NCBI GenBank assembly: GCA_947303225.1 | Contig: CAMYXG010000001.1 | Coordinates: forward strand, 1-34,970 | DNA: 34,970 nucleotides | Direction of reading: 5' to 3' | From: an uncultured Bacillales bacterium | GTDB taxonomy: Bacteria; Bacillota_I; Bacilli_A; RF39; UBA660 | Shown: positions 9,141 to 32,396 of the stretch, piece by piece | Layout of the letters: each line of letters opens with the position of its first letter | Numbering within the stretch: position 1 is the first letter of the stretch | Notes under the pieces: model-generated | Seen by the model: the letters and a program-made list of their open reading frames with translations, nothing else | Told to the model about the DNA's origin: nothing | Database searches by the model: none | Position numbers and translations under genes: made by a program

Positions 9141-9174
9141 CTTTCAATGATATATAATATGTGGGAGGTGTCAT

Positions 9175-14210: not shown

Positions 14211-15927
14211 ATGAAGAAAAAAGTGGTTGTATTGTTAGTTATTGCTTTTATTTTAGCATTGGTGTGGTTTTTAGTTTTATCTCCAATTTTTACTTTTCGT
14301 CAAAATGAAAAGATGGTGGAGAATGCTGCTAGGGAATATTTTGAATTAAATTCTAGAGAATTACCTACTGGGGAAAGAGTAAAGACAGTATCTTTAAAGA
14401 CATTGTATTATAATAAATTTTTGGAAAAAGATATTTATGTTCCTTTTCAAAGGAAGAACTGTTCCTTAGATGATAGTTGGGTAAAGGTAAAACGTGTAGA
14501 TGGAAAATATGAATATTATACCTATTTGGATTGTGGAATTATCAAGTCTTCTATTGATGCTAAGGGTCCAGAAATTCGTTTAAAGGGTAATACTACTATG
14601 TCTTTAAGCTTAGGAGAAGAATATCAAGAATTAGGAGTATCTAGTGTTGTAGATGATGTGGATGGTAATTTAAAGGTTGATGATGTTGTTATTAAGGGAA
14701 GTGTTGATACTTCTAAGATAGGAAATTATGAGATTACTTATACGGCTTTTGATCATTTAAGTAATAAAACAACTGTTACTAGAACTGTTCGTGTAGTTCA
14801 AAAGTTATATCAAACAGTGAAGAAGCAACTAAATGATTCTACGAATTATGTTGGGTATCCTGAAAATAATTATTTAAGACTTTCTAATATGCTTTTTCGT
14901 ATTTATGGTGTGGATGATAATAAGAATGTTATTATTGTTGCAGATGAAGATGTTACAAATGTTAATTATTCTAAAATAGATAAATGGTTAAAATACTATT
15001 ATGATCATTTAAATAAAAAGACAAAGAAAATGATTGTTCCATCAAAATATTGTAATATGACAATAGATGAGGCTAATCTTGGTACAAAAGAATGTAGTTC
15101 CTATACAAATAATAAAAAGGTATATATCCCTTCTGTAGTGGAAGTTAATAAAGCTCAGGGTACTGATAATAATTTTATGAAGACTAGAACTATGTCTTGG
15201 GTTTCTAATATGCAGGATGCGAAGAAAGCTTATTTAACAAGAGATGTTTTCTATTATTAAGCATATGGAAAGAGTTTTTTAGCTTATGATGCTGATGAGA
15301 ATTATGGAATTCGACCAATGATGGTAATTAAAGGTGGATCTCAAATTCAGAGTGGTGATGGTAGTTATGAAAAGCCTTATACTTTTGGAGATAGTAAGTC
15401 TGGTTCTGGTGGTTCTCTTCTTAAAGAACGCTCTACTGGAGAATACTTAGAGCTTAGTGGAATTTTATTCCGAATTATAGATGTGTGAAAATTCTGATAA
15501 AATAACATATGATCCAGCTGATAAAACGAGTGTAGCTTATTTTATTAATAATCGAATTAGTGAATATATTGATACTTCATTCTTTCAAAAGCATGAAATC
15601 GAAGTGCCAGTTTATAAAGATAAGATTATTTATGGTGAAGAAATTTCTAAGAAAAAGTATACTGTTTTGTTAGCAGCACCAGATATGTATGAAATGTTTA
15701 GTGCACAATCATCTACTTTACAAGGAAACATTTCTTTGTCTTATTGGTTAAGGAATACTTCTCAAGCAGAAAGAATAGGGGCTGCTGTATATGATGCTGG
15801 AGTACCTGTTAATGAGAAGATTAATTCTTTTGATCAGTATGGAATACGTGTTGAAGGATTTATTAAGGGTGATAGTGTAATTAACCGAGGAAATGGTACT
15901 CTAGCTTCACCTTATAAATTGAGATGA
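14211..15927 (+). pseudogene. Disrupted paralog of the membrane-anchored Ig-like/adhesin-like gene at 21626-23428
   Basis: ORFs 14211-15260 and 15481-15927 align with the N- and C-terminal parts of the 600-aa protein. An in-frame TAA at 15258-15260 is followed by 220 nt that still read through in the same frame (AYGKSFLAYDADENYGIRPMMVIKGG...GILFRIID). About 29 codons present in the paralog are then missing, and the frame shifts near 15480. Confidence 0.8.
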
Positions 15928-15946
15928 TGCTTTTGGGGGGATTACA

Positions 15947-16744
15947 TTGAGGTTTAAAACTAAATATTTAATTATTAGTTGCTTATTGATTATTTTTGTT
16001 GTTGGAATATCATTTCTATTATCAAAAGAGAAAAGTCATTATCAAATTGAATCTAGGTTGTCAAATGTTCTTGCTACTAAGATTGATGTAGATAATGGGT
16101 TCCATACAATTGGTTGGATTCGTGTTCAAGGTACTAATATTGATTATCCTATTATTCGGTCGGATGATGTACATGCAAATTTTCCAGTTCAATTAGAAAG
16201 TTTTTCATGGTCTTTAAATCATGATGATCAATATCATAATCATATCATCTTGATGGGACATAATATTTTTAATCTTTCTGCTACTCCAAAAAGTCATGAT
16301 GAGAGATTTCATCGCTTTGAAGAATTAATGAATTTTGTTTATTATGATTTTGTAAAGGATAATCAGTTTATTCAATTAACGATTGATGGGAAAGAGTATC
16401 TTTATAGAGTGTTTGCTGTTGGTTTTTTAAATGAATCAGATCTTTATAGTCTTCTTTCTCCTGATGATTATTCAAAAAAAGATTTGAATCAGTATTATCA
16501 ATTGATGGATGATATTAATATTTATAATTATGATGTTGATGTGAATGAGAATGATGATATTATTACTCTTTCTACTTGTACTCGTCTTTTTGGAGATGGT
16601 TATAAAACTGGATTTTATGTAAGCGGAAGATTATTAAGAAAGGAAGAATCTACTTATCTTTCTTCCGTAAGAAAAAGTAAAAAGTATCAAGAAGTTGAAA
16701 AGATTTGGAAGGGAGATGTAACAGATAATGAAGATTATGCATAA
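15947..16744 (+). CDS. Sortase-fold protein, class B-like, N-terminally membrane anchored (cassette A)
   Basis: GWIRVQGTNIDYPII, IILMGHNIF (catalytic His context), YLYRVFAV and IITLSTCTR (catalytic Cys context) parallel the S. aureus SrtB motifs GWIKLSGTSLNYPVL, ILYGHH and IMTLSTC. TTG start after a gggggg RBS. Confidence 0.7.
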   Translation: MRFKTKYLIISCLLIIFVVGISFLLSKEKSHYQIESRLSNVLATKIDVDNGFHTIGWIRVQGTNIDYPIIRSDDVHANFPVQLESFSWSLNHDDQYHNHIILMGHNIFNLSATPKSHDERFHRFEELMNFVYYDFVKDNQFIQLTIDGKEYLYRVFAVGFLNESDLYSLLSPDDYSKKDLNQYYQLMDDINIYNYDVDVNENDDIITLSTCTRLFGDGYKTGFYVSGRLLRKEESTYLSSVRKSKKYQEVEKIWKGDVTDNEDYA

Positions 16745-19451
16745 AAAAATTATTATTCTTTTATTATTATTGATGGCTTTTATTCCTAGAACTGTATCAG
16801 CTACTATCAAAAAAGGGAATGGTTCTGAAACATGTACTAATTATATTAAAGACATGGATGATGGAACTGGATTTATTTCTAAGTATGGAATTAGTTTACA
16901 AACTAAGCAAGATAAGTTTGTTTTAAAAATAACTAAGTCAAAGATGTCTGCTGCTGCTAAAAAGGAAAAAGATGTTAAGTTTAAGATTGTGAAAATAGCA
17001 ACTTTTTCTCAGTATGATGATTATGACAATCCAATTTTCGATTCGGAAATTACTAGTGCAAAAGTGATTAAAAATGATTATATTCTATCTAATGATAATG
17101 CATTGGTTCCTGGTGGTACTTTAAATGTTAAGTTGATTGCAAAACCTGGGGTTGCTATATTTATAGAGCCAGATGGTTTTAGTGATTCTGAATTAACAAA
17201 AAAATGTGGTAGTAAAGCTTATTTTACTGTTTTATTTACTGGATTTCCTGCTGAAGGTGATATTCCAGAAACTGATGATGTAACAGATAAGGAAATAAAA
17301 AGTCCAGATGGTGACGATATTAGTAGTAAAAAAATCATAGATTGTAATAATTATAAGAATAAGGGGTGGAGTACATCTGGTTTTAATTATCAATTCTGTG
17401 ATGTTAAGACAAAAGCCATTCAAGCAAACGGTGGTGAAAAGAGTAATAGTGTTACTCAGAAATTGAAATGTGATGTTACAAAATGGAATTATACTTCAGA
17501 TTATTATGTCAATAAAACATATTTATGGAAAACGAAAACAAAAAATATTAAAAATGAAAAAGTTACTAATGAAGATGGTACAGAACAAAAACTTGGTAAT
17601 TTGGTTTATTATTATAACTATACTTGTGGAAATAAAAATGGGGATCCTCAGAATGTTGGTTCTTGTAAATTAACATGTGAAGAAGCTGTTATTGTTGAAT
17701 ATGGTCCTCCAATTGCTTCTAAAGCTGGACTTTGTTTTGAATATAAAGTGAAAGTTACAAGTCGTGTTAGTTGTGGTGTTGATCAATATCCACCAAAACC
17801 AACTAGAGGTAAATTATGTACGCCTTCTCCTCAATGTACGGTTCCAGGAAGTGGAATTGTGCATACACAAGGTGGACCTAATGAAGACTTTGATGCTTGT
17901 ATTCAATCTTGTGATGGTGGTAGTTATTCTGATAAGTGTAGTAATTTCTGTTATCAAAAAGTTTATGGCGATTCTAGTGTTAAAAAGACTTCTGGTTATG
18001 AGCTTAATTATGCAGATAAGTTAAATTCAGTAGTTAATTCTTCTACTGTAGAACAAGTTCGAAATGGAGCAACGACACATGAATACTATTGTGATAGTAA
18101 CAATAATATTATTTGGAATACTGGACCTACTGGTTTATCTAGAGATTCTAGTATGGGAAGGGGAAATCCAAATGATCCAAGATGGCATAGAGAGCATTCT
18201 AGTTGGGGTATTAGTCCAATGTCTGGCTATCAGTGTTATTCTGCAACTGGTATTCCAAGACGTTGTAATTGTGGAGAAACATGTACTTGGACAAAAGGAA
18301 GTTGCTCTAGTGTAACGAAATCTTATATGAATCCTGGTGAGGCTACTGATGCATATAATGATAATGTAGATCGTTATAATAATTACGTAAAGTATTGTAA
18401 TCGTGCTGCGACATGTACTACTACTACAGCTACTTTTACAATTAGTACTTCTGTAGGAAAAACTAAGTACACATTCCCATATTCTACGGATGCTGATCAA
18501 TTACAATATAAAGGACTAAAAACTAAGAAAACTATTCTTTCTAATAAAGGATGCTATTCTAGTGATGACTCAGAGGATCTTTCTCATGAATGGTATTTGG
18601 CAGAATGGAGTTTTCCTGGAACATTTATTCATAATAAGACTGGTGAGATATCTTATGAAAATAAAATAGAGAATTCTGGATGGCAAAAGGTTGATAAGAA
18701 ATTCTGTTTACCTCTTAATGCTCCTAGTGTTAATCAAAAATGGTGGAATTATTATTATACTAAAGAATCTAGTGGTTCTAAGACGTATTCTTTTGAGACA
18801 ACGGAATATAAAGATAATTGTCCTCAGACGTGTCGATTTACTACAGTTTCTAGTATTGCTCCTGGTGATATTTCAAAATGGAATATTAATGCTGTAACGA
18901 AAAAATTTGGACATTATGGTTGGAATATTACTATCTCTTGCTTCTATGCTTTAAATAATAATGTTACTTTAACGACAAAAAAATGTACAGTACCTGAGTG
19001 TAAAACATCTAATCCACAGGCTTATCGAATTCGTTCTGTTGATTTGGGTAACTTATTCCCTAATCCTGATGGTTCCTCAATATCTAATTATACTGAAATT
19101 GGAAGGGCTCCTGGATTCAATTGGAGTAGTAGCGCAAAAAATACTGTTAAGGATCCAAAATTAAAGAGTAATGCTAGTACCTATGCTAAGGCTGTTCAGA
19201 AGAAGGCTGATAAAGTATATAATTCTAGTTCTGAATTGGATTATCATATTTATTTGACTAAGGATATCATCAAAAAAATTAAATCAACTGGTCAGAATTA
19301 TACTTCATATTCAGGCTCTACAAGTATTACTAATGTTAGTCATTATCAAAGTGATTTAATTCGTAATGTAATTGGTGCAACTGAAATTCCTCAACCAGGA
19401 GATTTACAATGCAACAATTTACTTAATCGAAAATGTTCTACTAATAAATAA
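16728..19451 (+). CDS. Large secreted cysteine-rich protein of unknown family (cassette A, intact)
   Basis: 907-aa ORF. Signal peptide KKIIILLLLLMAFIPRTVSA|T. About 33 Cys by my count. No C-terminal sorting signal. Paralog of 24252-26930. Confidence 0.85.
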   Translation: MKIMHKKIIILLLLLMAFIPRTVSATIKKGNGSETCTNYIKDMDDGTGFISKYGISLQTKQDKFVLKITKSKMSAAAKKEKDVKFKIVKIATFSQYDDYDNPIFDSEITSAKVIKNDYILSNDNALVPGGTLNVKLIAKPGVAIFIEPDGFSDSELTKKCGSKAYFTVLFTGFPAEGDIPETDDVTDKEIKSPDGDDISSKKIIDCNNYKNKGWSTSGFNYQFCDVKTKAIQANGGEKSNSVTQKLKCDVTKWNYTSDYYVNKTYLWKTKTKNIKNEKVTNEDGTEQKLGNLVYYYNYTCGNKNGDPQNVGSCKLTCEEAVIVEYGPPIASKAGLCFEYKVKVTSRVSCGVDQYPPKPTRGKLCTPSPQCTVPGSGIVHTQGGPNEDFDACIQSCDGGSYSDKCSNFCYQKVYGDSSVKKTSGYELNYADKLNSVVNSSTVEQVRNGATTHEYYCDSNNNIIWNTGPTGLSRDSSMGRGNPNDPRWHREHSSWGISPMSGYQCYSATGIPRRCNCGETCTWTKGSCSSVTKSYMNPGEATDAYNDNVDRYNNYVKYCNRAATCTTTTATFTISTSVGKTKYTFPYSTDADQLQYKGLKTKKTILSNKGCYSSDDSEDLSHEWYLAEWSFPGTFIHNKTGEISYENKIENSGWQKVDKKFCLPLNAPSVNQKWWNYYYTKESSGSKTYSFETTEYKDNCPQTCRFTTVSSIAPGDISKWNINAVTKKFGHYGWNITISCFYALNNNVTLTTKKCTVPECKTSNPQAYRIRSVDLGNLFPNPDGSSISNYTEIGRAPGFNWSSSAKNTVKDPKLKSNASTYAKAVQKKADKVYNSSSELDYHIYLTKDIIKKIKSTGQNYTSYSGSTSITNVSHYQSDLIRNVIGATEIPQPGDLQCNNLLNRKCSTNK

Positions 19452-19473
19452 TAGTAAGGAGGGATAATAATAT

Positions 19474-19962
19474 ATGAATAAAGGTATGTTAACGGTTGGA
19501 ATTATTCTTTTGAGTGTTATTGCATTATTATTAATTAATGTTTTAAATAATTATATGACTGGTGGGGAACTTGATTATTATTTAGTGAAGGAAACTGCTG
19601 ATGCTGCTATGGAAGATGCAATGGATAAAATGTATTTAAGAACATGCGGATTGCCACGTATGGATAAGGAAAAATTTGTAGAAAATTTTGTTTATCGTTT
19701 TGCAAATAGTGTCGATTCTAATCGTGAATATGATTTGAAATTTTATGACTTAAATGAAGTTCCTCCAAAGATTACTGTAGAAGTAAACTCGTTGACCGTT
19801 TTATCTTTTAATGTATCTGGAGAAAAAAATAGTAAACAAGCAGCTAATATTTCTACAAAATATAGTGCTATAGCAGAGTCTTCTTATTATAGTGATCCTG
19901 CTGTAGAAGAAGGTTTTACAAATAATATTTCTAAAAAAGATCAATGTAAACCTTATAAATAG
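19474..19962 (+). CDS. Small prepilin-like / N-terminally anchored protein (cassette A)
   Basis: RBS aaggaggg. A 4-residue leader MNKG is followed by a 20-residue hydrophobic stretch MLTVGIILLSVIALLLINVL. Two conserved Cys. Paralog of 26946-27464. Confidence 0.8.
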   Translation: MNKGMLTVGIILLSVIALLLINVLNNYMTGGELDYYLVKETADAAMEDAMDKMYLRTCGLPRMDKEKFVENFVYRFANSVDSNREYDLKFYDLNEVPPKITVEVNSLTVLSFNVSGEKNSKQAANISTKYSAIAESSYYSDPAVEEGFTNNISKKDQCKPYK

Positions 19963-19963
19963 T

Positions 19964-19999
19964 AAAAAAAGATGACTTCATCTTTTTTTCTTTTTTTTC
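19964..19999 (+). terminator. Rho-independent terminator ending cassette A
   Basis: Stem aaaaaaagatg (19964-19974) pairs with catcttttttt (19979-19989) around loop actt, followed by an extended T-tract. Confidence 0.75.
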
Positions 20000-20028
20000 T
20001 TTCCAAATTTTATAAAATGAGATATACT
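20000..20028 (+). promoter_or_regulatory. Candidate promoter of the 20062 gene / cassette B / tad-like operon
   Basis: tttcca, a 17-nt spacer, then TATACT (20023-20028). It resembles 14146-14174. Confidence 0.35.
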
Positions 20029-20061
20029 TATATAGAATGATAATAGGGGAGTGTGAACTTT

Positions 20062-21615
20062 ATGATTTTTCGTAAACCTTATGCCTTTCTAATTAAGAAT
20101 TTTAAGAAAATTCATATATTTTTACTATTACTAAGTTTGTATGTTGCCTATAAATTAATTAATGTTAATCATTTTGTTGGGGAATTTATGAAATTTGGAT
20201 CTTACGATTATTTTCAAGATCCTATTACAAATCATATTACTATTTGGTTGAGGATATCTATTTTAGTATTAGTATTTGGTAGTACAGCATTACTATTTTT
20301 ATTACATCATAAAAAGAAGCCATGGAAAATATATTTAGTTCCTATTGTTGAATATCTTGCATTATTTTTTGTATTAGGAATGATTCGAAGTTTCTTTAAT
20401 AATTATTCTAGTGATATTGAGACGACAGATTTACGTCTATCTAGAGATTTATTAATGATATTTTTAATTGCTCAGATACCTGCAATTGGTATTTTTATGA
20501 TGCGTGTATTTGGGTTGGATATTCGTAAGTTTCATTTTAATTCTGATGAAGAATTCTTACAATTAAGTGAGGAAGATAGAGAAGAGTTTGAAGTTAATAT
20601 AAATATTGATCAGCATTCTTTTAAACGTGGTTATCGAAGATTTATTCGAAATATCAATTATTTTTATATAGAACATAAAAAAATATGTAGAACTATTATA
20701 GGAATTGTTGTTGCCGTAGCTCTTTTTCAGACCTATCGACTTATTTTTGTTACTCATAAGAGTTATCAAGAAGGAAATGACTATAGTGTTAATGGTTATA
20801 CTATAAAAGTACATAATAGTTACTATACAGATAAAGATTATACCGGAAATGTTATTTCTAAAAATAGCAATTTTATCGTAGTTGATTTAACGGTAACTAA
20901 TTATGATGCTCCTAGAAAGCTGAAAATAGATAATTTTCATATAAAAAATGGGACTAGTGATTTTGTATCTACTAGAAAAACATATGAAAAAGAGTTTCAA
21001 GATTTTGGGACTACTTATGAAAGTGTAAAAGAATTTAAAAGAGATGAATCTTTTCGGTTTATTATTATTTATAAAGTAGATAAAAATTTAAAGATTAATA
21101 ATTTTAATTTGTTTTATCAAGAACATGATTATTTACGTAAAATTAAATTACATGTAAAAGATTGTCGAGAAATAGAAGATGGAGGAACTATTTCTTCTGG
21201 AGATACTATGAATTTTATGCTTCAAGGAAAAGAGGAGAATATTTCATTTGATTATTTTGAATTTAATAGTGAAGTTTCTTATTTTGCAAGGTCTTGCAAT
21301 AGTGTGACTTGTTCAGTTAATGAGCAAACTTATACTGCAAGTGGTGATAATACGGTATTGAAAATTGACTTTGCTTCTGATACTTTTGAAGGAAAAGACA
21401 TGGTTGACTTTTCAAACGATTATGGTAAAATTGTTTATATAGATAATAGTAATGATGAGAATGAAAAGGTAGAGATTGATTTTCATTATCCTTTTTCTAA
21501 AAAAGCTACTGGTAAGTATTTGTATACTTTGGTTCCAAAGGTAGTTGAAAATTCTAGTAGTGTAGAAATTGTTTATACTGTTCGGAATAAGAGGTACGTA
21601 TATAAGTTGGTATAA
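20062..21615 (+). CDS. Polytopic membrane protein with a large C-terminal extracytoplasmic beta-rich domain
   Basis: Five hydrophobic segments in the first roughly 235 aa, then about 280 aa of non-hydrophobic sequence (YSVNGYTIKVHNSYY...FIVVDLTVTNYD...FHIKNG) reminiscent of DUF4352-type Ig-like domains. ATG 20062 is better spaced from RBS ggggag than the track GTG 20053. Confidence 0.7.
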   Translation: MIFRKPYAFLIKNFKKIHIFLLLLSLYVAYKLINVNHFVGEFMKFGSYDYFQDPITNHITIWLRISILVLVFGSTALLFLLHHKKKPWKIYLVPIVEYLALFFVLGMIRSFFNNYSSDIETTDLRLSRDLLMIFLIAQIPAIGIFMMRVFGLDIRKFHFNSDEEFLQLSEEDREEFEVNINIDQHSFKRGYRRFIRNINYFYIEHKKICRTIIGIVVAVALFQTYRLIFVTHKSYQEGNDYSVNGYTIKVHNSYYTDKDYTGNVISKNSNFIVVDLTVTNYDAPRKLKIDNFHIKNGTSDFVSTRKTYEKEFQDFGTTYESVKEFKRDESFRFIIIYKVDKNLKINNFNLFYQEHDYLRKIKLHVKDCREIEDGGTISSGDTMNFMLQGKEENISFDYFEFNSEVSYFARSCNSVTCSVNEQTYTASGDNTVLKIDFASDTFEGKDMVDFSNDYGKIVYIDNSNDENEKVEIDFHYPFSKKATGKYLYTLVPKVVENSSSVEIVYTVRNKRYVYKLV

Positions 21616-21625
21616 GGAGATATAT

Positions 21626-23428
21626 ATGAAAACAATAAATGATAATTTAAAATTAGTAGTTACTATCTTAATTGTTGGTTTATTTTTATGGTTTTTAGTT
21701 CTTTATCCTATCATTAATTTTCATAATAATGAAAGTTTATTAGAAAATGCTGCTAGAAGGTATTTTGAATTAAATCCAAATGATTTACCAACTGGTGAGA
21801 GAGTGAAAACTGTTACATTGGAGACGTTGTATCATAAGTCTTTTTTAGAAAAAGATTTATATGCTCCATATACAAGGAAGAATTGCTCTATCAGTAAAAG
21901 TTGGGTAAAGGTTCGTCGTGAAAACAATCAATATCAGTATTATGTTTATCTAGATTGTGGAGGTGCTCTACATTCCTTAACAGATCATAAAGGTCCTGAG
22001 ATACGGTTAAATGGAGATTTAGATGTTTCTGTTTCTCTTGGAGAAGATTTTACTGATCCTGGAGTAAAAAGTGTAATTGATGGAGTTGATGGTCGTTTAA
22101 AAAATGCTGAAGTTGTTACTAAGGGTAAAGTAGATACTTCTAAAGTTGGTACGTATGAGATTACTTATACAGCAACTGATCAATTGAGTAATAAGACAAC
22201 TGTTACTAGGACTGTTCAAGTTGTTCAAAAACTATATCAAACTATCCTTCAAAAATTAGATAATAGTCGTAATTTTGTGGGGAATCCTGATGATAATTAT
22301 TTAATACTATCTAATATGATGTTTCGTATTTATGGTGTTGATGATGCGAATGTTTTGATTGTTGCAGATGAAGATGTTGCCAATGTTAACTATTCTAAAT
22401 TAGATAGTTGGTTAGAGTATTATTACAATCATTTAAATTCAAAAACTAAAAAGATGATTGTTGCTTCTCAATTTTGTAATATGAAGGTAACAGATACTAG
22501 TTTAGATACTACGCAGTGTAATTCTTATACAAGAAAAAGAAGTGTATATATTCCTTCGATAGTGGAAGTTAATAAAGCTGGTACTATGGAAGATAATTTT
22601 ATGAAGACTTCTACCATGTCTTGGGTTGCTAATTCAAAGAGTGATAAACAGGCTTATGTTACACGTGATCTTTTCTTTGGTGATTCTTATGGTAAAAGTT
22701 ATTTACCATATAATATCACTGATAATTATGGAGTTAGACCTATGATGTTTATTAAGGGTGATTCTTTAATAACTGGTGGTGATGGTACTAGAGAGAATCC
22801 ATTTGTATTTGGTGATACGAAAAAAGGATCGACTGGTAAGCTTGTTCATGATCGATTTACAGGTGAATATATTACAGATGGTGGACTTTTATGGAGAATT
22901 ATTGAGCCTATAGACGATGGAACGACTAAAATCATTAGTGTTTCTAGTATTATTAATACTTCAGCAGATGTGACTTTTTATCCTGATCCAGATAGTGATA
23001 TTATTCAATATAATCCAAAAGATAAGATGAGTGTTGGATACTTTATTGAAAATGGGATTCGTTCTTACGTGGATACTTCTAAGTTTGTACGACATGTTGT
23101 AGAAGTTCCTATCTATAAAAATAAGATTATTTATGGTGAAGAGGTTGATACCAAAAAATATGAAGTAATGTTATCAGCACCGAATATGTATGAATTATTT
23201 AGTGCTCAAACAAAAAATATTATTGGAGAGTATTCTAAATCATATTGGTTAATTAATAGTTCTAATGGTAAACGTATTGCTGGAGCGATTACGGATATTG
23301 GAGTTCCAATTAATGAGCCGATTGAGTCATATGATTCATTAGGTGTGAGGGTTGTTGGATATTTGAAAAAAGATATCACTATAAGTAGTGGAAAGGGTAC
23401 AGAGGTTTCCCCTTATAGGATTAAATAG
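21626..23428 (+). CDS. Membrane-anchored surface protein: pilin-like N-terminus, Ig-like (DUF5011-type) domain, two WxxxS...GVRP-type modules (cassette B, intact)
   Basis: ATG 21626 lies 6 nt after aaggag; the track start 21569 overlaps the upstream gene. TM segment LVVTILIVGLFLWFLVL. GPEIRLNGDLDVSVSLGEDFTDPGV...GTYEITYTATDQLSNKTTVTRTVQVV resembles DUF5011 Ig-like domains. MSWVANS...NYGVRPMMFIKGD...GDGTRENPFVF and SYWLINS...LGVRVVGYL...GTEVSPYRI resemble the DUF6273-type motif. Confidence 0.8.
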   Translation: MKTINDNLKLVVTILIVGLFLWFLVLYPIINFHNNESLLENAARRYFELNPNDLPTGERVKTVTLETLYHKSFLEKDLYAPYTRKNCSISKSWVKVRRENNQYQYYVYLDCGGALHSLTDHKGPEIRLNGDLDVSVSLGEDFTDPGVKSVIDGVDGRLKNAEVVTKGKVDTSKVGTYEITYTATDQLSNKTTVTRTVQVVQKLYQTILQKLDNSRNFVGNPDDNYLILSNMMFRIYGVDDANVLIVADEDVANVNYSKLDSWLEYYYNHLNSKTKKMIVASQFCNMKVTDTSLDTTQCNSYTRKRSVYIPSIVEVNKAGTMEDNFMKTSTMSWVANSKSDKQAYVTRDLFFGDSYGKSYLPYNITDNYGVRPMMFIKGDSLITGGDGTRENPFVFGDTKKGSTGKLVHDRFTGEYITDGGLLWRIIEPIDDGTTKIISVSSIINTSADVTFYPDPDSDIIQYNPKDKMSVGYFIENGIRSYVDTSKFVRHVVEVPIYKNKIIYGEEVDTKKYEVMLSAPNMYELFSAQTKNIIGEYSKSYWLINSSNGKRIAGAITDIGVPINEPIESYDSLGVRVVGYLKKDITISSGKGTEVSPYRIK

Positions 23429-23443
23429 AAAAGGAGTAGTAGT

Positions 23444-24286
23444 ATGAGTTGGAAAAAGAAAAGAATTTCAAAAAAAGAAAAAAAACAAAGACAAGTGATT
23501 TTATTAGTATCTCTTGTTGCATTGATTATTTTACTATTTGTAATAATGCTATGTGAAATATTTGTTACTCATAAAGATTTTTATGAAATGGAATCAAGAG
23601 TTTCCAATGTGGCGTTGGCACAAGATAGTAATAATGATAATTATCAAACTGCTGGTTGGTTGAAGGTTCAAGGAACTAACTTGGATTTGCCAGTTTTAAC
23701 AGGAATTGATAATGATATTGATTTTCCAGTAGAGATGGAAAAATATGTTTGGAATGTTGGTAATAAAAGAGGATTTCAAAAGAAAATTGATATAATGGGA
23801 CATAATATTTTTAATTTGTCTTCATCTCCTAAACTAACATCTGATTCTTTTAATCGATTTGAAGAATTGATGGGATTTGTTTATTATGATTTTGCAAAAG
23901 ATAATAAATATTTTCAAATTACAATTGATGGAAAAGATTATCTCTATAAAATATTCTCTGTAGATTTTATAGATGCTGTTGATGTAGATATGTTTCCAAG
24001 TGGAGATTATACAAGGGACGATATTCAATATCAGCTTGATTTATTTAAGAAAAATACGATTTATGATTATGATGTTGATGTAAATGAAGATGATAGTTTT
24101 GCTTCTTTGATTACCTGTACAAGATTTTTTGGAACGGAAGAATATATTGACTTTTTAGTTAATGGAAGACTTGTTCGTTCTAATGAAAAAATAAAAGATT
24201 ATGATATTAAGAAAACAAAAAATTATGCAAAAGTTGAAAAAGTATTGAAAGGTGATGATGACAATGATACGGACAGTTCGATGTAA
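23444..24286 (+). CDS. Sortase-fold protein, class B-like, N-terminally membrane anchored (cassette B)
   Basis: GWLKVQGTNLDLPVL, IDIMGHNIF, YLYKIFSV and ASLITCTR. Paralog of 15947-16744 with the candidate catalytic His and Cys conserved. Confidence 0.7.
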   Translation: MSWKKKRISKKEKKQRQVILLVSLVALIILLFVIMLCEIFVTHKDFYEMESRVSNVALAQDSNNDNYQTAGWLKVQGTNLDLPVLTGIDNDIDFPVEMEKYVWNVGNKRGFQKKIDIMGHNIFNLSSSPKLTSDSFNRFEELMGFVYYDFAKDNKYFQITIDGKDYLYKIFSVDFIDAVDVDMFPSGDYTRDDIQYQLDLFKKNTIYDYDVDVNEDDSFASLITCTRFFGTEEYIDFLVNGRLVRSNEKIKDYDIKKTKNYAKVEKVLKGDDDNDTDSSM

Positions 24287-24569
24287 GAGAATATTGGGGT
24301 TATCTATTCTAGTGCTTATTGTATCTGTTTTTTCATTCTTACAAGTTCAAGCAAAAACAAAAGAAGAATGGAAAGCATATTGTAAGGATTATCTTCCTAA
24401 TACGAAGTTTGTTTCAAGATATAATGCTACGATTGAAGAAGTTGATATTACAGATAGTGGTCTTGCTTCTAAATATAAAATATCAATTAATCCAAAGTCA
24501 TCTGATGCAGATTTAAAAAAGGCTTTGAGAAAAATTGTTTTTGTAGTTTCAGAGGTTAATGGTAAGTAA
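24252..24569 (+). CDS. N-terminal (signal-peptide) fragment of the cassette B cysteine-rich protein, ended by an in-frame TAA
   Basis: Signal peptide RILGLSILVLIVSVFSFLQVQA|K. It is in the same frame as 24654-26930, and the 84 nt between them contain no other stop. Confidence 0.6.
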   Translation: MMMTMIRTVRCKRILGLSILVLIVSVFSFLQVQAKTKEEWKAYCKDYLPNTKFVSRYNATIEEVDITDSGLASKYKISINPKSSDADLKKALRKIVFVVSEVNGK

Positions 24570-24653
24570 CAAGATGGAAAACAAACTGTTTCTTATAAAT
24601 ATCCACTTATCATTAAGGGTAGTTTTACAAAAGATTCTTCTGGAGAACAGAAG

Positions 24654-26930
24654 ATGGAAGTAAAGTTGACTTCTGTTGAAGAAAATGCTGATCCACATTG
24701 TATTGGAAAAGTTAATTTTACTCTTACTGTTGAAAAAATGGGAGATTCTTTTACTACTAAAGAACCAGTTAATCCTATTGTGGATGAGTTTGGTCAAACC
24801 GATGGTCAAGCTATTGACTGTAGTAAACCTCAAACTGAAGCTTTTGAAAAAGCATTTTGTGAGGCAAAAAATGGTGCTATGGCAGCTGATCCAAATAAGA
24901 AATTAGGATTAAACTATGATGGTAAATTTAATGATCACAAGACGTTTAAAGATGTTTTATCTGGTTATAAGGAATTAAAGTGTAGTGTAACTAATTTTAA
25001 TACAGTAAATGGTTATTATGTAAATAAGACATATTTATATGGATCTGGTGAAAACAATATGACGTTTGGTACTTATAAATATCATTATTCTCCAGGTGCT
25101 ATTACAAAAGGTGCTACTGTTAAATGTAAAGTAAAATGTGAGGAATCTGTTGTTGTTGAATATGGTCCTCCAATAGCTTCTAAAGCTGGATTGTGTTTTG
25201 AATATAAAGTAAAAGTAACGAGTCGTGTTAGTTGTAGTATGAGTGAAAAACCTGTTGTTCCTGAAGTACAAGATTCTTATTGTACTCCTACACCTATTTG
25301 TAGAACTAGTGCTGGTACTTATACTAATCAAGGTGGACCTAATGAAGAGTTTGATGCTTGTGTTAAGGCTTGTGATGGTGGTAAATATACTGATAAATGT
25401 TCTAAAAAATGTTATAGTAAAGTATATGGTAATGATTCCGCAAGTAAAACAACAACGGCTGGTAGAGAGTATTTAACGGAGAGACTTGCTTATTCTGAAA
25501 GTGCATTTAGTTTAGGAACTTGTATAAAAGAAAGCAGTTACCATGGATGTTATTATAGAAGTGGTGGCGGTATTAATTGGAAAGGACAAGCTGTTTCTAC
25601 TCCAGGAAGATGGTATTTAGTATATCCTCATAAAGATTTATCAGAATATGCTGTCTTTGGAAATGGAATTTATCGTCATGTATATTCTGATGGAAATCAT
25701 TGTCATGATGTTTGCTGGTGGGCAGGATGTAGTGGTAATGTTTATTTGAATCCTGGTCAAGCAGAAAAAGATAGAGAAAATAATAAAGAAATTTATGATA
25801 AAGCAGTTGCTAAATGTAAAGCTACTGCAACTTGTACAACAACTACTGCTGATTTTACAATCTCTGTTAATTATAAAGATGGTAGCAATACTGTTAAAAC
25901 GATTAACTTCCCTTATACAGAAAACAATAATTCAAAGGATCATTTAACTTCTAAAGGTGCTGCTAATGGTTACCAAGATACTGCTACGAATCATAATACT
26001 ACAATTCTAGATTATTCTGGATGTTATAAAGAAAAGAAAGCTTATCGTATTTATATGACTGAATGGAGTTTCCCAGGATCATGGATTAATAATAAGACAG
26101 GTGAAATTTCATATGTTAATAAGAATAATAATACTGCATGGCAAACATTAAAAGAAAAATTCTGTATACCTCTAGATGCTCAGAATGTTAATCAAAAATG
26201 GTGGAATTACTATTATAGTCGCGATATTATAAATCCAAATTATTCTACAAATAGTAGTTCATATCAACAAAATTGTATTGATCAGGGATATGGTGCTAAA
26301 CTTATTAAAACGATTACAGAAGATGATATTGAAGACTGGAATATTAAGGCACATACTAAGAACTTTGGATACTTTGGATGGAATATTAAGATTTCTTGCT
26401 TCTATGCATTGAATACTAATCCATCAAGTGTAACTAATACCAATTCTTCTACAAGTGTTCCTGATGCATGTCAATCTGGTTCTGCTTATCGAATTCGTTC
26501 TGTTGATTTAAATAATTTGTTCCCTGCTACAGATGGTTCAAATAATTCTAGAACACCTGGATTCAACTGGAGTGAATATGCAACTGTTACGAAGAAAGCA
26601 GAAAATGCTGCAAATAATTATTACACAATTAAGCCTGCAGAGTATGCTACGAAAGTACAAAAAGTTGGAGATAGTGTTTATTCTGATGAGTACTTAAATT
26701 ATTCAATTGATTTAACTCGTTCTATGATTGCTGCTTTGAAGAAGGAAAATAAAGCAATTGAAAATAATTATTCTGATTTCTCTGGAAAAACTGATACCAA
26801 TTATGTTATTAACTACCGTAGTCCATTATTTAGAGATGGTGGAATATTGAGTAGTAGTTCAAAATATCCTAATGAGGAATCATTAAAATGTAATAATATG
26901 AAGAAATTTAATGGTGGTTGTGAAGGATAG
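24654..26930 (+). CDS. Body of the cassette B cysteine-rich protein (no signal peptide of its own; probably one gene with 24252-24569)
   Basis: 758-aa ORF with about 28 Cys. It is colinear with residues from about 150 to the end of the 907-aa paralog and shares identical blocks: VEYGPPIASKAGLCFEYKVKVTSRVSC, ATCTTTTA, NKTGEISY, VNQKWWNYYY and AYRIRSVDL. Confidence 0.8.
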   Translation: MEVKLTSVEENADPHCIGKVNFTLTVEKMGDSFTTKEPVNPIVDEFGQTDGQAIDCSKPQTEAFEKAFCEAKNGAMAADPNKKLGLNYDGKFNDHKTFKDVLSGYKELKCSVTNFNTVNGYYVNKTYLYGSGENNMTFGTYKYHYSPGAITKGATVKCKVKCEESVVVEYGPPIASKAGLCFEYKVKVTSRVSCSMSEKPVVPEVQDSYCTPTPICRTSAGTYTNQGGPNEEFDACVKACDGGKYTDKCSKKCYSKVYGNDSASKTTTAGREYLTERLAYSESAFSLGTCIKESSYHGCYYRSGGGINWKGQAVSTPGRWYLVYPHKDLSEYAVFGNGIYRHVYSDGNHCHDVCWWAGCSGNVYLNPGQAEKDRENNKEIYDKAVAKCKATATCTTTTADFTISVNYKDGSNTVKTINFPYTENNNSKDHLTSKGAANGYQDTATNHNTTILDYSGCYKEKKAYRIYMTEWSFPGSWINNKTGEISYVNKNNNTAWQTLKEKFCIPLDAQNVNQKWWNYYYSRDIINPNYSTNSSSYQQNCIDQGYGAKLIKTITEDDIEDWNIKAHTKNFGYFGWNIKISCFYALNTNPSSVTNTNSSTSVPDACQSGSAYRIRSVDLNNLFPATDGSNNSRTPGFNWSEYATVTKKAENAANNYYTIKPAEYATKVQKVGDSVYSDEYLNYSIDLTRSMIAALKKENKAIENNYSDFSGKTDTNYVINYRSPLFRDGGILSSSSKYPNEESLKCNNMKKFNGGCEG

Positions 26931-26945
26931 GAGGTTTAAGATTAT

Positions 26946-27464
26946 ATGAATAAAGGTATGTTAACAGTTGGAATTATTTTGCTTAGTGTTATTGCTTTAT
27001 TATTAGTCAATGTACTATCTAGTTATTCCACTGGAAGTGAATTAGATTATTACTTAGTAAAAGAAACTACAGATGCTGCTATGGAAGATTCTATTGATAA
27101 GGTCTTCCTTAGACAGTGTGGTTTGTATCGAATTGATAAAGAAAAGTTCGTTGAGAGCTTTCTTTATCGATTTGCTGATAGTGTGGATGCTTCTCGTGAT
27201 TATCATATTAAATTTTATGATATTAATGAAGTTCCTCCAAAAGTAAGTGTTAAAGTAGATTCATTAACGGTTCTTTCTTTTAATGCTAAGACTGCTAATG
27301 GACAAACGAAGAATGCCGCAGATATTACTACAAACTATGATGCTATTTTGGAAACTAAATACTTATCTGATTTAGCTGTGGAAAATGGTTTGAAAGAGTC
27401 TGAACCAAGTTCAATTACTTATGATCAGTGTAGGGCATTAATTGAAATGAATGGAAAGAAATAA
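26946..27464 (+). CDS. Small prepilin-like / N-terminally anchored protein (cassette B)
   Basis: The first 20 residues, MNKGMLTVGIILLSVIALLL, are identical to the cassette A paralog. RBS aggagg. Confidence 0.8.
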   Translation: MNKGMLTVGIILLSVIALLLVNVLSSYSTGSELDYYLVKETTDAAMEDSIDKVFLRQCGLYRIDKEKFVESFLYRFADSVDASRDYHIKFYDINEVPPKVSVKVDSLTVLSFNAKTANGQTKNAADITTNYDAILETKYLSDLAVENGLKESEPSSITYDQCRALIEMNGKK

Positions 27465-27482: not shown

Positions 27483-28295
27483 ATGGGTAATTTATCTACT
27501 GGGTTAAAAAAGTTTATGCAAAATAAGAATACTGTTACAGTAGTTGGTGTTGTTGCTGCTATTATTGTATTGTATTTTGCTTATACTATGCGTATTAGTT
27601 CTGCTATTAATCCAATTCGAGTTCCTTATGCAAAGGAACAAATTCCTGCAGGTACTCAAATTACGGAAGCAATGATTGAGACGATGGAAGTACCTCCTTC
27701 AATGCTAGAGGGTGATGTAATTCAAAATACTGGTGAAATCATTGATAAGTATGCTGCTGCTGATACTGTTATTCCAGCTGGAAGTTTGTTTTATAAGCGA
27801 GCAGTGGTAGAAAAAGAACAATTGCCTGCTAATATTATTTTGGAATATCCAAAGGGATATGTTTTATATAATTTATCTGTTGATACTACTTCTACTTATG
27901 GTAATTCTGTATATCCAGGTAATTATATTGATATTTATTTAAAAGCAGTAAATGTTGTTGATGAGTCTAGTCCTGCTAATTTAACAAAAGATGCTGATAA
28001 GATTATGTTAGGAAAACTAATGGCTAATATTGAGGTATTAGCAGTTAAGGATGCTGATGGTCAACCAGTTTTCCAAAATATTGATGAGAATAGAGTTCCT
28101 GCTATGGTTGTATTTGCTCTTCCTGAGGAATACTATGTTCTTCTAAAAAAAGCAGAAGAGATGAGAACTTATGATACTTCAATTATTTTAGTTCCTACGA
28201 ATGAAAGTTTAAAAGATGAGCCAGCTGAACTTGAAATTAGTAGTGAACAATTAAAAGATTGGATTAATACTAATACTTTTTGGACAGATAATTAA
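27483..28295 (+). CDS. cpaB: Flp pilus assembly protein CpaB/RcpC-like (SAF plus RcpC-type domains)
   Basis: N-terminal TM segment. SAF-like IRVPYAKEQIPAGTQITEAMIETMEVPPSML...TVIPAGSLF, then RcpC-like GYVLYNLSVDTTSTYGNSVYPGNYIDIYL...IEVLAV...MVVFALPEEYYVLLKKAEE...IILVP. Confidence 0.75.
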   Translation: MGNLSTGLKKFMQNKNTVTVVGVVAAIIVLYFAYTMRISSAINPIRVPYAKEQIPAGTQITEAMIETMEVPPSMLEGDVIQNTGEIIDKYAAADTVIPAGSLFYKRAVVEKEQLPANIILEYPKGYVLYNLSVDTTSTYGNSVYPGNYIDIYLKAVNVVDESSPANLTKDADKIMLGKLMANIEVLAVKDADGQPVFQNIDENRVPAMVVFALPEEYYVLLKKAEEMRTYDTSIILVPTNESLKDEPAELEISSEQLKDWINTNTFWTDN

Positions 28296-28319
28296 GATTT
28301 AGAAAAGGATGTGAGTTAA

Positions 28320-29909
28320 ATGAACGAAAATATTTTTGATAAGTTAGATTTTGGACCTTTTCGTTCCTTATTGGATAATGATGATATAACTGATATTTCC
28401 TATGATAATAATGGTCAAATTTGGATTCGTTCTTTGACTCAGGGTTCTCTTAGAGTTGAAGTTGAAGGTGCGACTCCTGAATTTGTGGAAAAATTAGCTT
28501 TTCAATGTTCTAATGTTATGGGTACTACTTTTAATAATGCTAAACCTTTTTTAGATGCTGAATCTGCAGAGTTACGTATGAACTTTGTTCATCAAAGTAT
28601 TGCGACGAATGGGATTGCTCTTGTTATACGTAAAACTCCTGCTAAGATTCGTTTGGAAAAAGAAAAGTTAATTCAAGAAGATTATTTTACTCCTGCGATT
28701 CATGATTTTCTTATTAAATGTGTTGAGGGACATTGTAATATTATGGTTGCTGGAGAAACTGGTTCTGGTAAAACTGAGTTTGTTAAGTATTTGGCGAGTC
28801 ATACAAAGACTAATGAGAAAATTATTACGATTGAGGATACTTTGGAATTGCATTTAGATAAGATATTCCCTCAGCGTGATATTGTTTCTATGAAAACGAA
28901 TAATGTTGCTAGTTATTCTGATGTTTTAGTTACTTGTATGCGTCAGAATCCAAAATGGATTCTACTTTCGGAAGTTCGTTCCGCAGAGGCTGTTTCTGCT
29001 GTTCGTAACTCTATTTCATCAGGACATAATATTTTATCCACAATTCATGCGGATAAAGCATCTGCTATTCCATATCGTTTATATTCTTTGATGGAAACTG
29101 ATTTGGATGTTCATCAGTTTTTAACAACGATTTATCGTTATATTCAATTAGGTGTACATATTAAGGCTTTTTATAGTAAAGAATATGGAAAGTTTCATCG
29201 TGAATTAGATGAAGTTTGTGAATTTTATGTAGATGATGATAATGTTCCTCGTTCAAGGATTATTTATCAAAAACTATTTGGAAAACCTATGATGTGTAAA
29301 CCAAGTGCACATTTGGTTGAATATTTGGAAAATCAAAATATTCAAGTTCAAGATATTATTAAGGATTTGCCTGAAGAACTTCCTATACATAAATTTGAAG
29401 AGGAAAAGGATACTCAAGCAAAAGAAGGGGATACTCAAGAAGTATCTAAAGATGAAGAAACGGTTGCTCAGGAAACTGTTGCTGAAAATGATAATACTTC
29501 ATTAAATGATTCTATTGATTCTGCACAGGATGCTTCGGAGGTGGAAAAAACTCCAGATGTGATATCTCCACCAGTTTCAGTTACTCCTGATGCTAGTAGT
29601 GTTGTTTCATCTGTTCCAGAAGACGTTTCTGTAGCTTCTACACCTCCTACTGTTTCAGCACCTGCAGTTCCAGAGGTTACTCCTGTTGCGCCTACTTCTA
29701 CTGTTGAACAAGTTTCACAAGTTAATGATAGTGTAGGATCTGTTGCACCTGCTGTGAGTGTTCCGGTACCATCTGTTGCTAGTATTGCACCTGCGGTAAG
29801 TCCTATTGTTCCACAACAACAAGTTGTGATTCAAGCTAATGTTCCACCAACAGTTCCTCCTGTTGTTGGAGTTGCACCTGCTGTTGCAGTGGCTAAGCTT
29901 GGAGAATAA
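28320..29909 (+). CDS. tadA: TadA/CpaF-like (VirB11-type) secretion ATPase with a long low-complexity C-terminal tail
   Basis: Walker A VAGETGSGKTEF, Walker B-like WILLSEVRSAEA and His-box GHNILSTIHADKA. The last 170 aa or so are acidic and then P/V/S/A-rich. Confidence 0.85.
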   Translation: MNENIFDKLDFGPFRSLLDNDDITDISYDNNGQIWIRSLTQGSLRVEVEGATPEFVEKLAFQCSNVMGTTFNNAKPFLDAESAELRMNFVHQSIATNGIALVIRKTPAKIRLEKEKLIQEDYFTPAIHDFLIKCVEGHCNIMVAGETGSGKTEFVKYLASHTKTNEKIITIEDTLELHLDKIFPQRDIVSMKTNNVASYSDVLVTCMRQNPKWILLSEVRSAEAVSAVRNSISSGHNILSTIHADKASAIPYRLYSLMETDLDVHQFLTTIYRYIQLGVHIKAFYSKEYGKFHRELDEVCEFYVDDDNVPRSRIIYQKLFGKPMMCKPSAHLVEYLENQNIQVQDIIKDLPEELPIHKFEEEKDTQAKEGDTQEVSKDEETVAQETVAENDNTSLNDSIDSAQDASEVEKTPDVISPPVSVTPDASSVVSSVPEDVSVASTPPTVSAPAVPEVTPVAPTSTVEQVSQVNDSVGSVAPAVSVPVPSVASIAPAVSPIVPQQQVVIQANVPPTVPPVVGVAPAVAVAKLGE

Positions 29910-29923
29910 AAAGGGGTGATGTT

Positions 29924-30826
29924 ATGTATATTGAAGAGTTATTCATTATTATTGTCTTTGTAGTTGCTATTTATTTATATAGAAATTATCAGGGAGATAA
30001 TGTAGGTAAATATGTATTGGAACAAGTACAAGGAGCTTACGATCGTTTTGCACCTTATTCTTTTAAGGTTGTTCGTGAAAAGACAAAGCAGTTGGGAGAA
30101 GAGTATACTCCTAGACAATATGCTATACAAGTTTCTTTATTTGCTTCTTTTGCTGCAGTTGTTACTTATTTATACTTTTATAATTTAATTATTAGTATTA
30201 TTTATGCTTTAATTGCTGTATCATTTGTTCCTTATTTGACTTATTTAAGATGTAAAAAGACTTATTCCGAATTTTTATTTGAACAAGTTCAAGTATACAC
30301 TTCTAATACTATTATGGAGTTTGCTACTACGCAGTCTTTTGTTAAAGCACTAGAAGGTGTTGCCAATTCCGGTATTTTGGAAGATCCTGTTCTTAGTGAT
30401 GTTCGTCAAATGATTACTATGTCTTATGATAATGGTACGATTGATGAAGCATTAGAATATATGAGTAAGTTATATCCTTATTATATTGTTAAGAATATGC
30501 ATCAGTTGTTTTTACAAATAACTAAAGAGGGTGCTCAAAATTCTGCAGATTCTCTTGAAAATATGCAGTTAGATATCGATATGCTTGTTGAAAGTGTGTA
30601 TCGAGATCGTATTGAACGTGCATCTTTCCACAAATCCTTTTTACAGTTTGGTATTATGCTGTATTTAATGGTTATGTTAGTTCAGTATTTGTTGGGAAGA
30701 GAAACCTATTTGGTACTACTAGAACGATGGTATATTCAAGTTCTAATGCATGGAGTACTGATTATTAATACATATTTCCTTTTAAAAGGTGAAAAATACT
30801 ATAATGAAAATGTAGGTGCTGAGTAA
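29924..30826 (+). CDS. tadB: TadB-like inner-membrane platform protein (T2SSF-type topology)
   Basis: Topology is N-terminal TM, TM pair, about 130-aa soluble domain, then C-terminal TM pair. It sits immediately after the ATPase and is coupled to the next gene by a TAATG overlap. The call rests on topology and synteny, not on a strong motif. Confidence 0.6.
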   Translation: MYIEELFIIIVFVVAIYLYRNYQGDNVGKYVLEQVQGAYDRFAPYSFKVVREKTKQLGEEYTPRQYAIQVSLFASFAAVVTYLYFYNLIISIIYALIAVSFVPYLTYLRCKKTYSEFLFEQVQVYTSNTIMEFATTQSFVKALEGVANSGILEDPVLSDVRQMITMSYDNGTIDEALEYMSKLYPYYIVKNMHQLFLQITKEGAQNSADSLENMQLDIDMLVESVYRDRIERASFHKSFLQFGIMLYLMVMLVQYLLGRETYLVLLERWYIQVLMHGVLIINTYFLLKGEKYYNENVGAE

Positions 30827-31635: not shown

Positions 31636-31664
31636 TTGATATTTTATTTATGATTTGTTATAAT
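31636..31664 (+). promoter_or_regulatory. Near-consensus sigma-A promoter inside the operon, in front of the small pilin-like ORF
   Basis: TTGATA (31636-31641), exactly 17 nt, then TGtTATAAT (31656-31664). Confidence 0.65.
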
Positions 31665-31698
31665 TTTATTGTATGATTAAGAAAGGATAGGTGAGTTG

Positions 31699-31866: not shown

Positions 31867-31944
31867 TTAGATTATAAAAGAATTGATTACTTAAATTGGT
31901 TATAATATGTTATTTTCATCTTATGATGATGGGAGGATTTGTCC

Positions 31945-32379: not shown

Positions 32380-32396
32380 GATAGGTAGGTGTTTTT

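Follow-up and report, generated by a model that had tools for sequence, protein, structure and literature searches.

Probable old duplication of a four-gene cassette beside a Tad-like machine in an uncultured Bacillales bacterium, with apparently recent loss of one large gene from each copy

The 34,970-nucleotide stretch of contig CAMYXG010000001.1 that was analysed here (assembly GCA_947303225.1; uncultured Bacillales bacterium, RF39, UBA660), called the window below, contains two paralogous four-gene cassettes, A and B, upstream of genes that resemble those of Tad type IV filament systems. The arrangement is probably the outcome of an old cassette duplication that was maintained within a conserved Tad-like locus, followed by recent mutational loss of one gene from each cassette (A1 and B3) that redundancy made tolerable. 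In both cassettes the genes stand in the order G1-G2-G3-G4, named after the families of their products, and a gene termed SP lies between the cassettes.

14211..15927, + strand: A1, a G1-family pseudogene (N-terminal membrane anchor, Bact_surface_Ig-like domain, DUF6273-type C-terminal region)
15947..16744, + strand: A2, an intact class-B sortase homologue with an N-terminal anchor and the catalytic motifs GHN, TCTR and R
16728..19451, + strand: A3, an intact gene of the G3 family for a predicted secreted protein of 907 residues with 33 cysteines
19474..19962, + strand: A4, an intact gene for a DUF5411 protein of 162 residues with an N-terminal hydrophobic helix
20053..21615, + strand: SP, a protein of 520 residues, predicted to span the membrane five times, whose C-terminal domain is large
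21626..23428, + strand: B1, an intact G1 protein of 600 residues (Bact_surface_Ig-like and DUF6273) with LPTGxR after its membrane anchor
23444..24286, + strand: B2, an intact class-B sortase homologue
24252..26930, + strand: B3, a G3-family gene with one in-frame TAA at 24567-24569
26946..27464, + strand: B4, an intact gene for a DUF5411 protein of 172 residues

An earlier interpretation, the sequence-only reading, had described cassettes A (14211-19962) and B (21626-27464) as a diverged duplication and proposed their pairwise alignment, which shows them to be true paralogues. The best collinear blastn segment matches 14265-15481 with 21689-22905 (71% identity over 1225 nucleotides, expectation value E = 1e-171), further collinear segments across G2, G3 and G4 have 68-76% identity, and families of direct repeats pair the two cassettes at a spacing of 7.42-7.54 kb. 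The paralogous proteins are 60-63% identical in G1, 40% in G2, 38-40% in G3 and 65% in G4. The labels of anchored Ig-like, sortase-like and cysteine-rich protein given by the same reading concur with the domain matches described below, except that G3 has no family, and its account of the intact genes was confirmed: A1 is broken and A3 intact, B1 is intact and B3 has an in-frame stop, and each large gene is left with a single intact copy, the sortase-like G2 gene and the G4 gene with two each (A2, A3, A4, B1, B2 and B4).

The window was compared with 79 loci, 77 of them from a scan of one genome per species and two from metagenomic contigs, on all of which eleven window proteins were placed by tblastn. 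All 77 scanned loci are from uncultured gut or rumen Bacilli, their records being labelled Mollicutes, Tenericutes, Erysipelotrichaceae, Bacilli or 'Mycoplasma sp. CAG:877'. The A-SP-B layout of the window is also found in loci L001, L002 and L007. A conspecific genome was not found in the collections searched, where the best relative of B3 is 69% identical and the best relative of G4 is 86% identical.

Two lesions are present in A1. An in-frame TAA at 15258-15260 stands where the L002 and L001 orthologues have GAA, and a 77-nucleotide deletion at the 15484/15485 junction has removed approximately 27 codons and shifted the frame; the microhomology at the junction is at most 4-5 nucleotides. 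The resulting pieces have 349 and 148 residues, and the intact orthologues of L001 and L002 have 595-599. B3 has only one lesion, the in-frame TAA at 24567-24569, opposite which the L002 orthologue has a glutamine in the alignment; the change was presumably CAA to TAA, judging from the aligned residue rather than from the L002 DNA. Apart from this codon the frame of B3 is open from 24252 to 26930, and B3 orthologues of 887-904 residues span the position. The signal peptide lies within the 105 codons that precede the stop, and the 758-codon open reading frame (ORF) downstream has no export signal; because it lacks a hydrophobic N-terminus, any re-initiated product is predicted to be incapable of export. 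An alternative genetic code was rejected as the cause of the stops, as both are TAA, the ordinary stop codon of intact neighbouring genes, and the other ORFs are long.

Among approximately 80 G1 and 85 G3 copies that are complete on their contigs, only A1 and B3 of the window are broken internally. The shortest complete copies outside the window have 587 (G1) and 893 (G3) residues, and where tblastn matches elsewhere carry asterisks, these mark the natural stops with which the genes end. All eight cassette genes of L001 and of L002 were called at full length, and no cassette gene of L007 is internally broken, its A1 being cut by the contig end; thus the comparison with relatives that the sequence-only reading had proposed found no broken cassette gene in genomes with the A-SP-B layout. 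Loss of the resident G3 gene, B3, is unique in the sample. The timing of the lesions was assessed from relative distances instead of the ratio of nonsynonymous to synonymous substitution rates (dN/dS) because synonymous sites are saturated at the 46-80% protein identity found between orthologues. Measured against L001, A1 is 64% identical in the window and 64% in L002, and B3 is 63% identical in the window and 63% in L002. Furthermore, B3 retains every invariant residue of the G3 family alignment and A1 retains the conserved G1 positions outside the deletion. With outgroup distances equal and these residues retained, the lesions in both genes look recent.

The duplication appears, from the pairing of its copies, to be old and not young. 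The A-copies of the window find their partners among the A-copies of L001 and L002, and its B-copies among the B-copies of L001, L002 and L007; A is thus orthologous to A, and B to B, in different genomes, which indicates that the duplication or acquisition is older than the separation of these species-level lineages. For the window against L002, the identity is 50% for A2 versus 80% for B2 and 46% for A3 versus 70% for B3, with 99% for GreA and 96% for the ATPase of the Tad-like core, a pattern in which cassette A appears to evolve faster than cassette B, and both much faster than GreA or the ATPase. G3 is the fastest-evolving component of the cassette. In neighbour-joining trees, the A-type G2 and G3 proteins fall together with those of L004 and L009, loci that have a single cassette, and with the CpaB-proximal copy of L003, and the B-type copies with the single cassettes of L005, L008, L047 and L033; the trees of G1 and G4 show this grouping less clearly.

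In approximately 60 of the 79 loci the gene order is GreA-(lipoprotein)-SP-G1-G2-G3-G4-CpaB-ATPase-TadB-TadC, and SP-G1-G2-G3-G4 is fixed directly upstream of the Tad-like core in approximately 70 species. Two-cassette layouts are a minority of the 79 loci. Besides the A-SP-B layout they include tandem cassettes in L003 (after SP) and L055 (where the contig begins in the first cassette), and the order G2-G3-G4-SP-G1-G2-G3-G4 in L045, where the extra set has no G1. A similar G1-less set, split across contigs, is apparently also present in L051 with L079 and in L057 with L043, and L037 has a second G3-G4 upstream of SP, the 5′ part of this locus not being resolved. Nearest-neighbour distances and the neighbour-joining trees indicate that two-cassette layouts may have had at least three or four independent origins. 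The extra G2-G3-G4 sets without G1 suggest that a single G1 can work for both cassettes, and on this view it is no surprise that A1 was lost. In three loci the two G4 genes are 98.5% identical in DNA and the adjoining G3 genes 55-75%, with a sharp boundary between them (L037, 4354-4854 and 11795-12295; L045, 11969-12466 and 19422-19919; L055, 5639-6190 and 11872-12414). This suggests either gene conversion of G4 or use of G4 as a recombination anchor for cassette exchange in these loci; the G4 pair of the window is only 72.5% identical in DNA, and thus no recent conversion has taken place between the window cassettes.

The 520-residue membrane-protein gene between the cassettes had been taken by the sequence-only reading as an insertion, a view that the comparison contradicts, since SP is 5′ of G1 in approximately 60 loci as the conserved first gene of the canonical operon. 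With SP at the start of the operon in relatives, cassette B is identified as the resident set and cassette A as the extra copy. The terminator and promoter pair that had been placed between the cassettes was found again, the promoter-like hexamers following the hairpin at approximately 20000-20044.

19964-19998, + strand: probable intrinsic terminator, an AT-rich hairpin with a U-run directly 3′ of A4 (-9.7 kcal/mol, z = -3.6)

A simple GC-biased terminator scan did not report this hairpin; hairpins of differing sequence occupy the equivalent site in L002 and L001. The gap between SP and B1 is 10 nucleotides and contains a Shine-Dalgarno sequence. From the hairpin after A4 and this short gap, cassette A looks like a separate transcription unit with its own terminator, and SP and cassette B seem to continue into the genes downstream.

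SP and all four cassette proteins are predicted by topology to be extracytoplasmic. In G1, the Bact_surface_Ig-like domain was matched in both A1 and B1 and DUF6273 in B1. An LPTGxR motif approximately 25 residues after the membrane anchor (21771-21800 in B1, 14347-14376 in A1) is kept in at least 90% of 81 G1 sequences. It was not accepted as a sortase site, as it is not an LPXTG pentapeptide and adjoins the N-terminal anchor.

G2, an anchored protein, belongs to the sortase superfamily as a divergent subfamily, according to both profile and structure-database matches. A2 scored 33.3 bits with PF04203 (cut-off 26.6) and B2 scored 21.3 bits, below the cut-off; with TIGR03064, E was 5e-14 for A2 and 3e-10 for B2, both below the equivalog cut-off. 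Matches to the class-B sortases (SrtB) of Clostridioides difficile, Clostridium perfringens and Staphylococcus aureus in the PDB had E of 4e-9 to 7e-6, that of B2 to the C. difficile enzyme 6kyc being 4e-9. Among 87 G2 members the GHN and TCTR motifs are conserved in at least 90% and the downstream arginine in at least 60%, and A2 and B2 both have the catalytic histidine, cysteine and arginine motifs. A further, very divergent sortase-like gene, encoding 214 residues with 23-26% identity to B2, is present in L071 (1092-1703) and L072 (3247-3858), directly after greA, with SP following after approximately 1.2-3.3 kb.

G3 proteins are predicted to bear a Sec signal and have approximately 900 residues, of which 30-33 are cysteines. 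Neither Pfam nor NCBIfam has a family that matches them. Full-length homologues of A3 number in the hundreds; none bears a Pfam domain, and in the few cases where a name is given it is only "hypothetical protein". A G3 profile search of 1.84 billion cluster representatives (clusters at 50% identity) returned 670 at E ≤ 0.001, and the metagenome scan made in the search for conspecific genomes returned one relative. An AlphaFold2 (AF2) model of A3 computed from 104 sequences (predicted local distance difference test, pLDDT, 76.5; predicted template modelling score, pTM, 0.66) had no fold match in the PDB or BFVD at E ≤ 0.001, and a profile search of PDB sequences gave only chance-level matches. 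G4 proteins have 160-170 residues and an N-terminal hydrophobic helix, and match DUF5411 (PF17424, cut-off 30) with 136.6 bits (E = 6.7e-40) for A4 and 151.9 bits (E = 1.3e-44) for B4. A phage or plasmid origin of the cassettes was set aside because no cassette protein has a PHROG match, G3 has no BFVD fold match and the chromosomal context is syntenic in the 79 loci, collections of phage, plasmid and E. coli DNA not having been searched.

The genes downstream of cassette B appear, from profile matches, order and topology, to encode a divergent Tad-like type IV filament or secretion system.

27483..31629, + strand: Tad-like core of CpaB-like, ATPase and TadB/TadC-like genes, in an order kept in approximately 70 loci
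27483-28295, + strand: CpaB/RcpC-like protein, with matches below the curated cut-offs
28320-29909, + strand: ATPase of the T2SSE/VirB11/TadA type with a tail rich in proline, valine and serine
29924-30826 and 30826-31629, + strand: TadB-like and TadC-like polytopic proteins, by position, size and topology
31696..32831, + strand: small proteins with N-terminal hydrophobic helices (56 residues, and a pair of 146 and 144 residues), candidate pilins or pseudopilins

The ATPase matches PF00437 (T2SSE) above the cut-off with E = 1.5e-27, and its best NCBIfam matches (VirB11, the TadA family and FlaI) are all below the equivalog cut-offs. The TadB-like and TadC-like proteins of 300 and 267 residues were assigned by their position, size and polytopic topology. 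The candidate small pilins at 31696-32831 have no family matches, and no sorting-signal motif was found at the ends of the small proteins downstream in the window.

The cassettes would then be the accessory half of a divergent locus of the Tad-like, type IV filament kind, its canonical unit being SP-G1-G2-G3-G4-CpaB-ATPase-TadB-TadC. Judging from context and topology, SP and G1-G4 would form or decorate the exposed part of a filament or secretion apparatus, in which G3, predicted to be Sec-exported and rich in disulfides, would be the displayed or adhesive component. The lineage of the window would have carried a second, old and faster-evolving G1-G4 set, cassette A, upstream of SP, and three recent mutations (the A1 nonsense mutation, the 77-nucleotide A1 deletion and the B3 nonsense mutation) would have left the cell with B1, A3, both sortase genes and both DUF5411 genes. 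The simplest mechanism would be mutational loss tolerated by partial redundancy, A3 presumably substituting for B3, and not a programmed event. Because relatives with the A-SP-B layout have no broken genes, both cassettes would normally be useful, probably as alternative surface variants. The sequence-only reading had offered decay after duplication as one explanation, which holds to the extent that two paralogues have been inactivated, leaving each large gene with an intact copy, and fails to the extent that the duplication is not young; nor is decay the general fate of the duplicate, as the cassettes of L001 and L002 are intact and none of the cassette genes of L007 is internally broken.

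Cassette A might instead have been acquired by recombination from a related lineage, in which case A3 would be a newcomer taking the place of the resident B3, and B1 a resident that was kept. This is possible but doubtful: the A-type and the B-type each occur as the sole cassette of some other genomes in the neighbour-joining trees, and the near-identical G4 genes that flank diverged G3 genes elsewhere suggest that G4 can anchor recombination, yet an ancient duplication with differential loss yields the same tree, neighbour-joining at 35-50% protein identity is weak, the G1 and G4 trees are less clear, and no mobile-element genes flank cassette A. It is unlikely that one or more of the lesions are errors of assembly or sequencing (for example a consensus error in B3 or a graph shortcut in A1) and that both cassettes are intact in the real organism. 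The two independent A1 lesions are of different kinds, and the microhomology at the deletion junction falls far short of a long repeat that might mislead an assembler. The approximately 30 remaining genes of the window, which spans approximately 35 kb, are full length with no other broken gene evident, and the eight genes 5′ of cassette A equal their L001 orthologues in length. Moreover, all three lesions are in two genes that have a paralogue, as relaxed selection predicts and random error does not. Even so, the window is evidently a metagenomic contig, a break is unusual a priori when all of the approximately 165 other G1 and G3 copies are intact, and B3 has one lesion only, a single base change, which makes the case for its stop weaker than that for A1.

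A selective advantage of the complementary losses, in which the combination of B1 and A3 would be favoured, for example by escape from host immunity or from a phage targeting B3, is decidedly unlikely. It would account for each large gene surviving in exactly one intact copy, and rapid evolution is expected of an exposed target such as G3. However, the outcome would be the same if redundant copies had been lost neutrally, a single genome offers no replication, and the equal-rate test revealed no acceleration. The subfunctionalisation suggested by the sequence-only reading is not demonstrated, and nothing here separates selection from drift. The other suggestion made there, a programmed, switchable repertoire (phase or antigenic variation) with the stops as current OFF states, is the hardest to credit and very improbable. 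A repeat search found no long inverted repeats in the window, there is no homopolymer or short tandem repeat at 15258, 15484 or 24567, and the proteins scanned, which fall short of every ORF of the window, include none with a recombinase domain. Substitutions and a 77-nucleotide deletion are not readily reversible, which counts against a switch, and an OFF copy occurs in no other genome examined. The cassette proteins do evolve much faster than neighbouring housekeeping genes, cassette duplication did arise independently in several lineages, and the contrast between G4 (98.5%) and G3 (55-75%) in L037, L045 and L055 does imply recombination or gene conversion between cassettes, but such conversion of G4 is seen only in other genomes, the window pair being too diverged for it to have been recent.

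Several observations weigh against the favoured explanation of maintained duplication and tolerated loss in a Tad-like locus. The function of SP-G1-G2-G3-G4 is read from context and topology, and redundancy of A3 and B3 has to be assumed at 38% identity. The B3 stop, as a single base change, could be a consensus error or a minority allele, and the closest B3 orthologue is 69-70% identical, the relative from the metagenome scan only 44%. Neither inspection nor topology prediction revealed a C-terminal hydrophobic segment or sorting signal in G1, G3 or G4 that the sortase homologue might recognise. The CpaB-like protein is below the cut-offs of PF16976 (26.4 bits; cut-off 28.8) and TIGR03177 (E = 2e-10, 40 bits; cut-off 71), the TadB-like and TadC-like proteins have no Pfam or NCBIfam match, and no Flp, TadE or peptidase A24 (prepilin peptidase) match was recognised in the window; the prepilin peptidase could be encoded elsewhere in the genome. 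The description of G4 as prepilin-like in the sequence-only reading is not established. Its N-terminus, MNKG/MLTVG, has glycine where a class III signal peptide is expected to have glutamate at +5, and the AF2 model, in which a long N-terminal helix precedes a three-stranded sheet in a pilin-like outline, reached only a modest pLDDT of 66.7 and matched nothing in the PDB at E ≤ 0.001.

The tad locus of Bifidobacterium breve is a Tad/Flp type IVc pilus locus of a monoderm bacterium. Like Tad/Flp type IVc loci, the window has a CpaB-like protein, an ATPase of the TadA/CpaF/VirB11 superfamily, two platform-like proteins and, after this core, several small proteins with N-terminal helices. Unlike them, it has the conserved five-gene module SP, G1, G2, G3 and G4 upstream, its core matches are partly below curated cut-offs (the Pfam match of the ATPase being above), and no Flp pilin with a G/XXXXEY motif, no TadE/TadF match to a hidden Markov model and no prepilin peptidase were recognised in the window. 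The spaABC, spaDEF and spaHIG clusters of Corynebacterium diphtheriae are paralogous sortase-dependent pilus islands. The window cassettes are likewise paralogous and rapidly diverging, each with its own sortase and large surface protein, but their proteins have no LPXTG-type C-terminal signal and the cassette is tied to an ATPase-driven Tad-like machine. Neisseria has two paralogous large type IV pilus adhesin genes, pilC1 and pilC2, one of which is often OFF owing to a reversible frameshift in a poly-G tract. The window similarly has two diverged large non-pilin genes at a filament system, one of them inactivated, but the B3 lesion is a nonsense substitution without a repeat tract. G3 matched no solved structure, no comparison having been aimed at PilC/PilY1.

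A Tad-like cluster has been reported from TANB77 (PMC11680825). DUF5411 was found mentioned in the literature only in a predicted operon, resembling those of type IV pili and type II secretion systems, of Roseburia, Ruminococcus and Eubacterium (Miller et al. 2022, PMC9523054). As in the window, DUF5411 there accompanies a CpaF-family ATPase, a PilC/GspF-like membrane protein and a large surface protein; unlike the window, the hosts are Clostridia and neither a sortase nor a cysteine-rich G3 is mentioned, the two being compared by description only. The module SP-G1-G2-G3-G4 was not found described in the literature on RF39, Tad, sortase and CpaB. Operons of DUF5411 with an ATPase had been predicted before (PMC9523054), and SP-G1-G2-G3-G4 is otherwise uncharacterised but widely conserved.

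The pseudogene pattern itself matters little, being a routine outcome of redundancy, and the uncharacterised module is more interesting than the broken genes. An order-level group of uncultured gut Bacilli with small genomes keeps a nine-gene surface locus beside greA, the largest and fastest-evolving product of which, G3, has no Pfam family and no match to solved structures or predicted viral ones, and which includes a sortase homologue without a recognisable substrate. The locus is a plausible determinant of attachment to host or particles in organisms that cannot yet be cultured. The recurrent duplication, G4 homogenisation and G1 loss hint at which parts of the cassette are interchangeable, and these hints can be tested. 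As a tentative and rather speculative proposal, SP-G1-G4 may be an undescribed display module that deploys a G3 protein of new fold, with the cassette as an exchangeable 'serotype' unit subject to G4-anchored swapping and pruning; a Tad-like ATPase machine and a class-B sortase-type enzyme without canonical substrates would then cooperate. If so, the window shows one step of cassette turnover.

The window has a G+C content of approximately 28%, with nearly all genes on the + strand. A hybrid histidine kinase with HisKA, HATPase_c, receiver and Hpt domains is encoded at 691-3240, approximately 11 kb upstream of the cassettes. The C-terminal tail of the ATPase (residues ~360-529, approximately 170 residues) is of low complexity, rich in proline, valine, serine and alanine, and unusual for the family; the ATPase of L007 can be aligned over 528 positions with 80% identity. 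The ORF that comes next after the TadC-like gene, at 31696-31866, encodes 56 residues (beginning MMKAATGELNLTVITLIAIAAV...) that include a single hydrophobic helix. It is preceded by the region's best promoter-like site (31636-31664, matching at 11 of 12 positions and carrying a TG extension) and is a candidate for the major pilin, though no Flp motif was seen on inspection. It is followed by a tandem pair of paralogues (31939-32379 and 32397-32831) encoding small cysteine-containing proteins with N-terminal helices that are 36% identical (E = 2e-23). A second tandem pair, at 33932-34237 and 34324-34818, encodes proteins with two membrane spans and a weak resemblance to T4SS_pilin, 30% identical over 71 residues. 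Elsewhere, L065 has three CpaB-like genes (1916-2683, 9090-9890 and 10045-10851), one of them between SP and G1, so the CpaB component has also been duplicated in some lineages.

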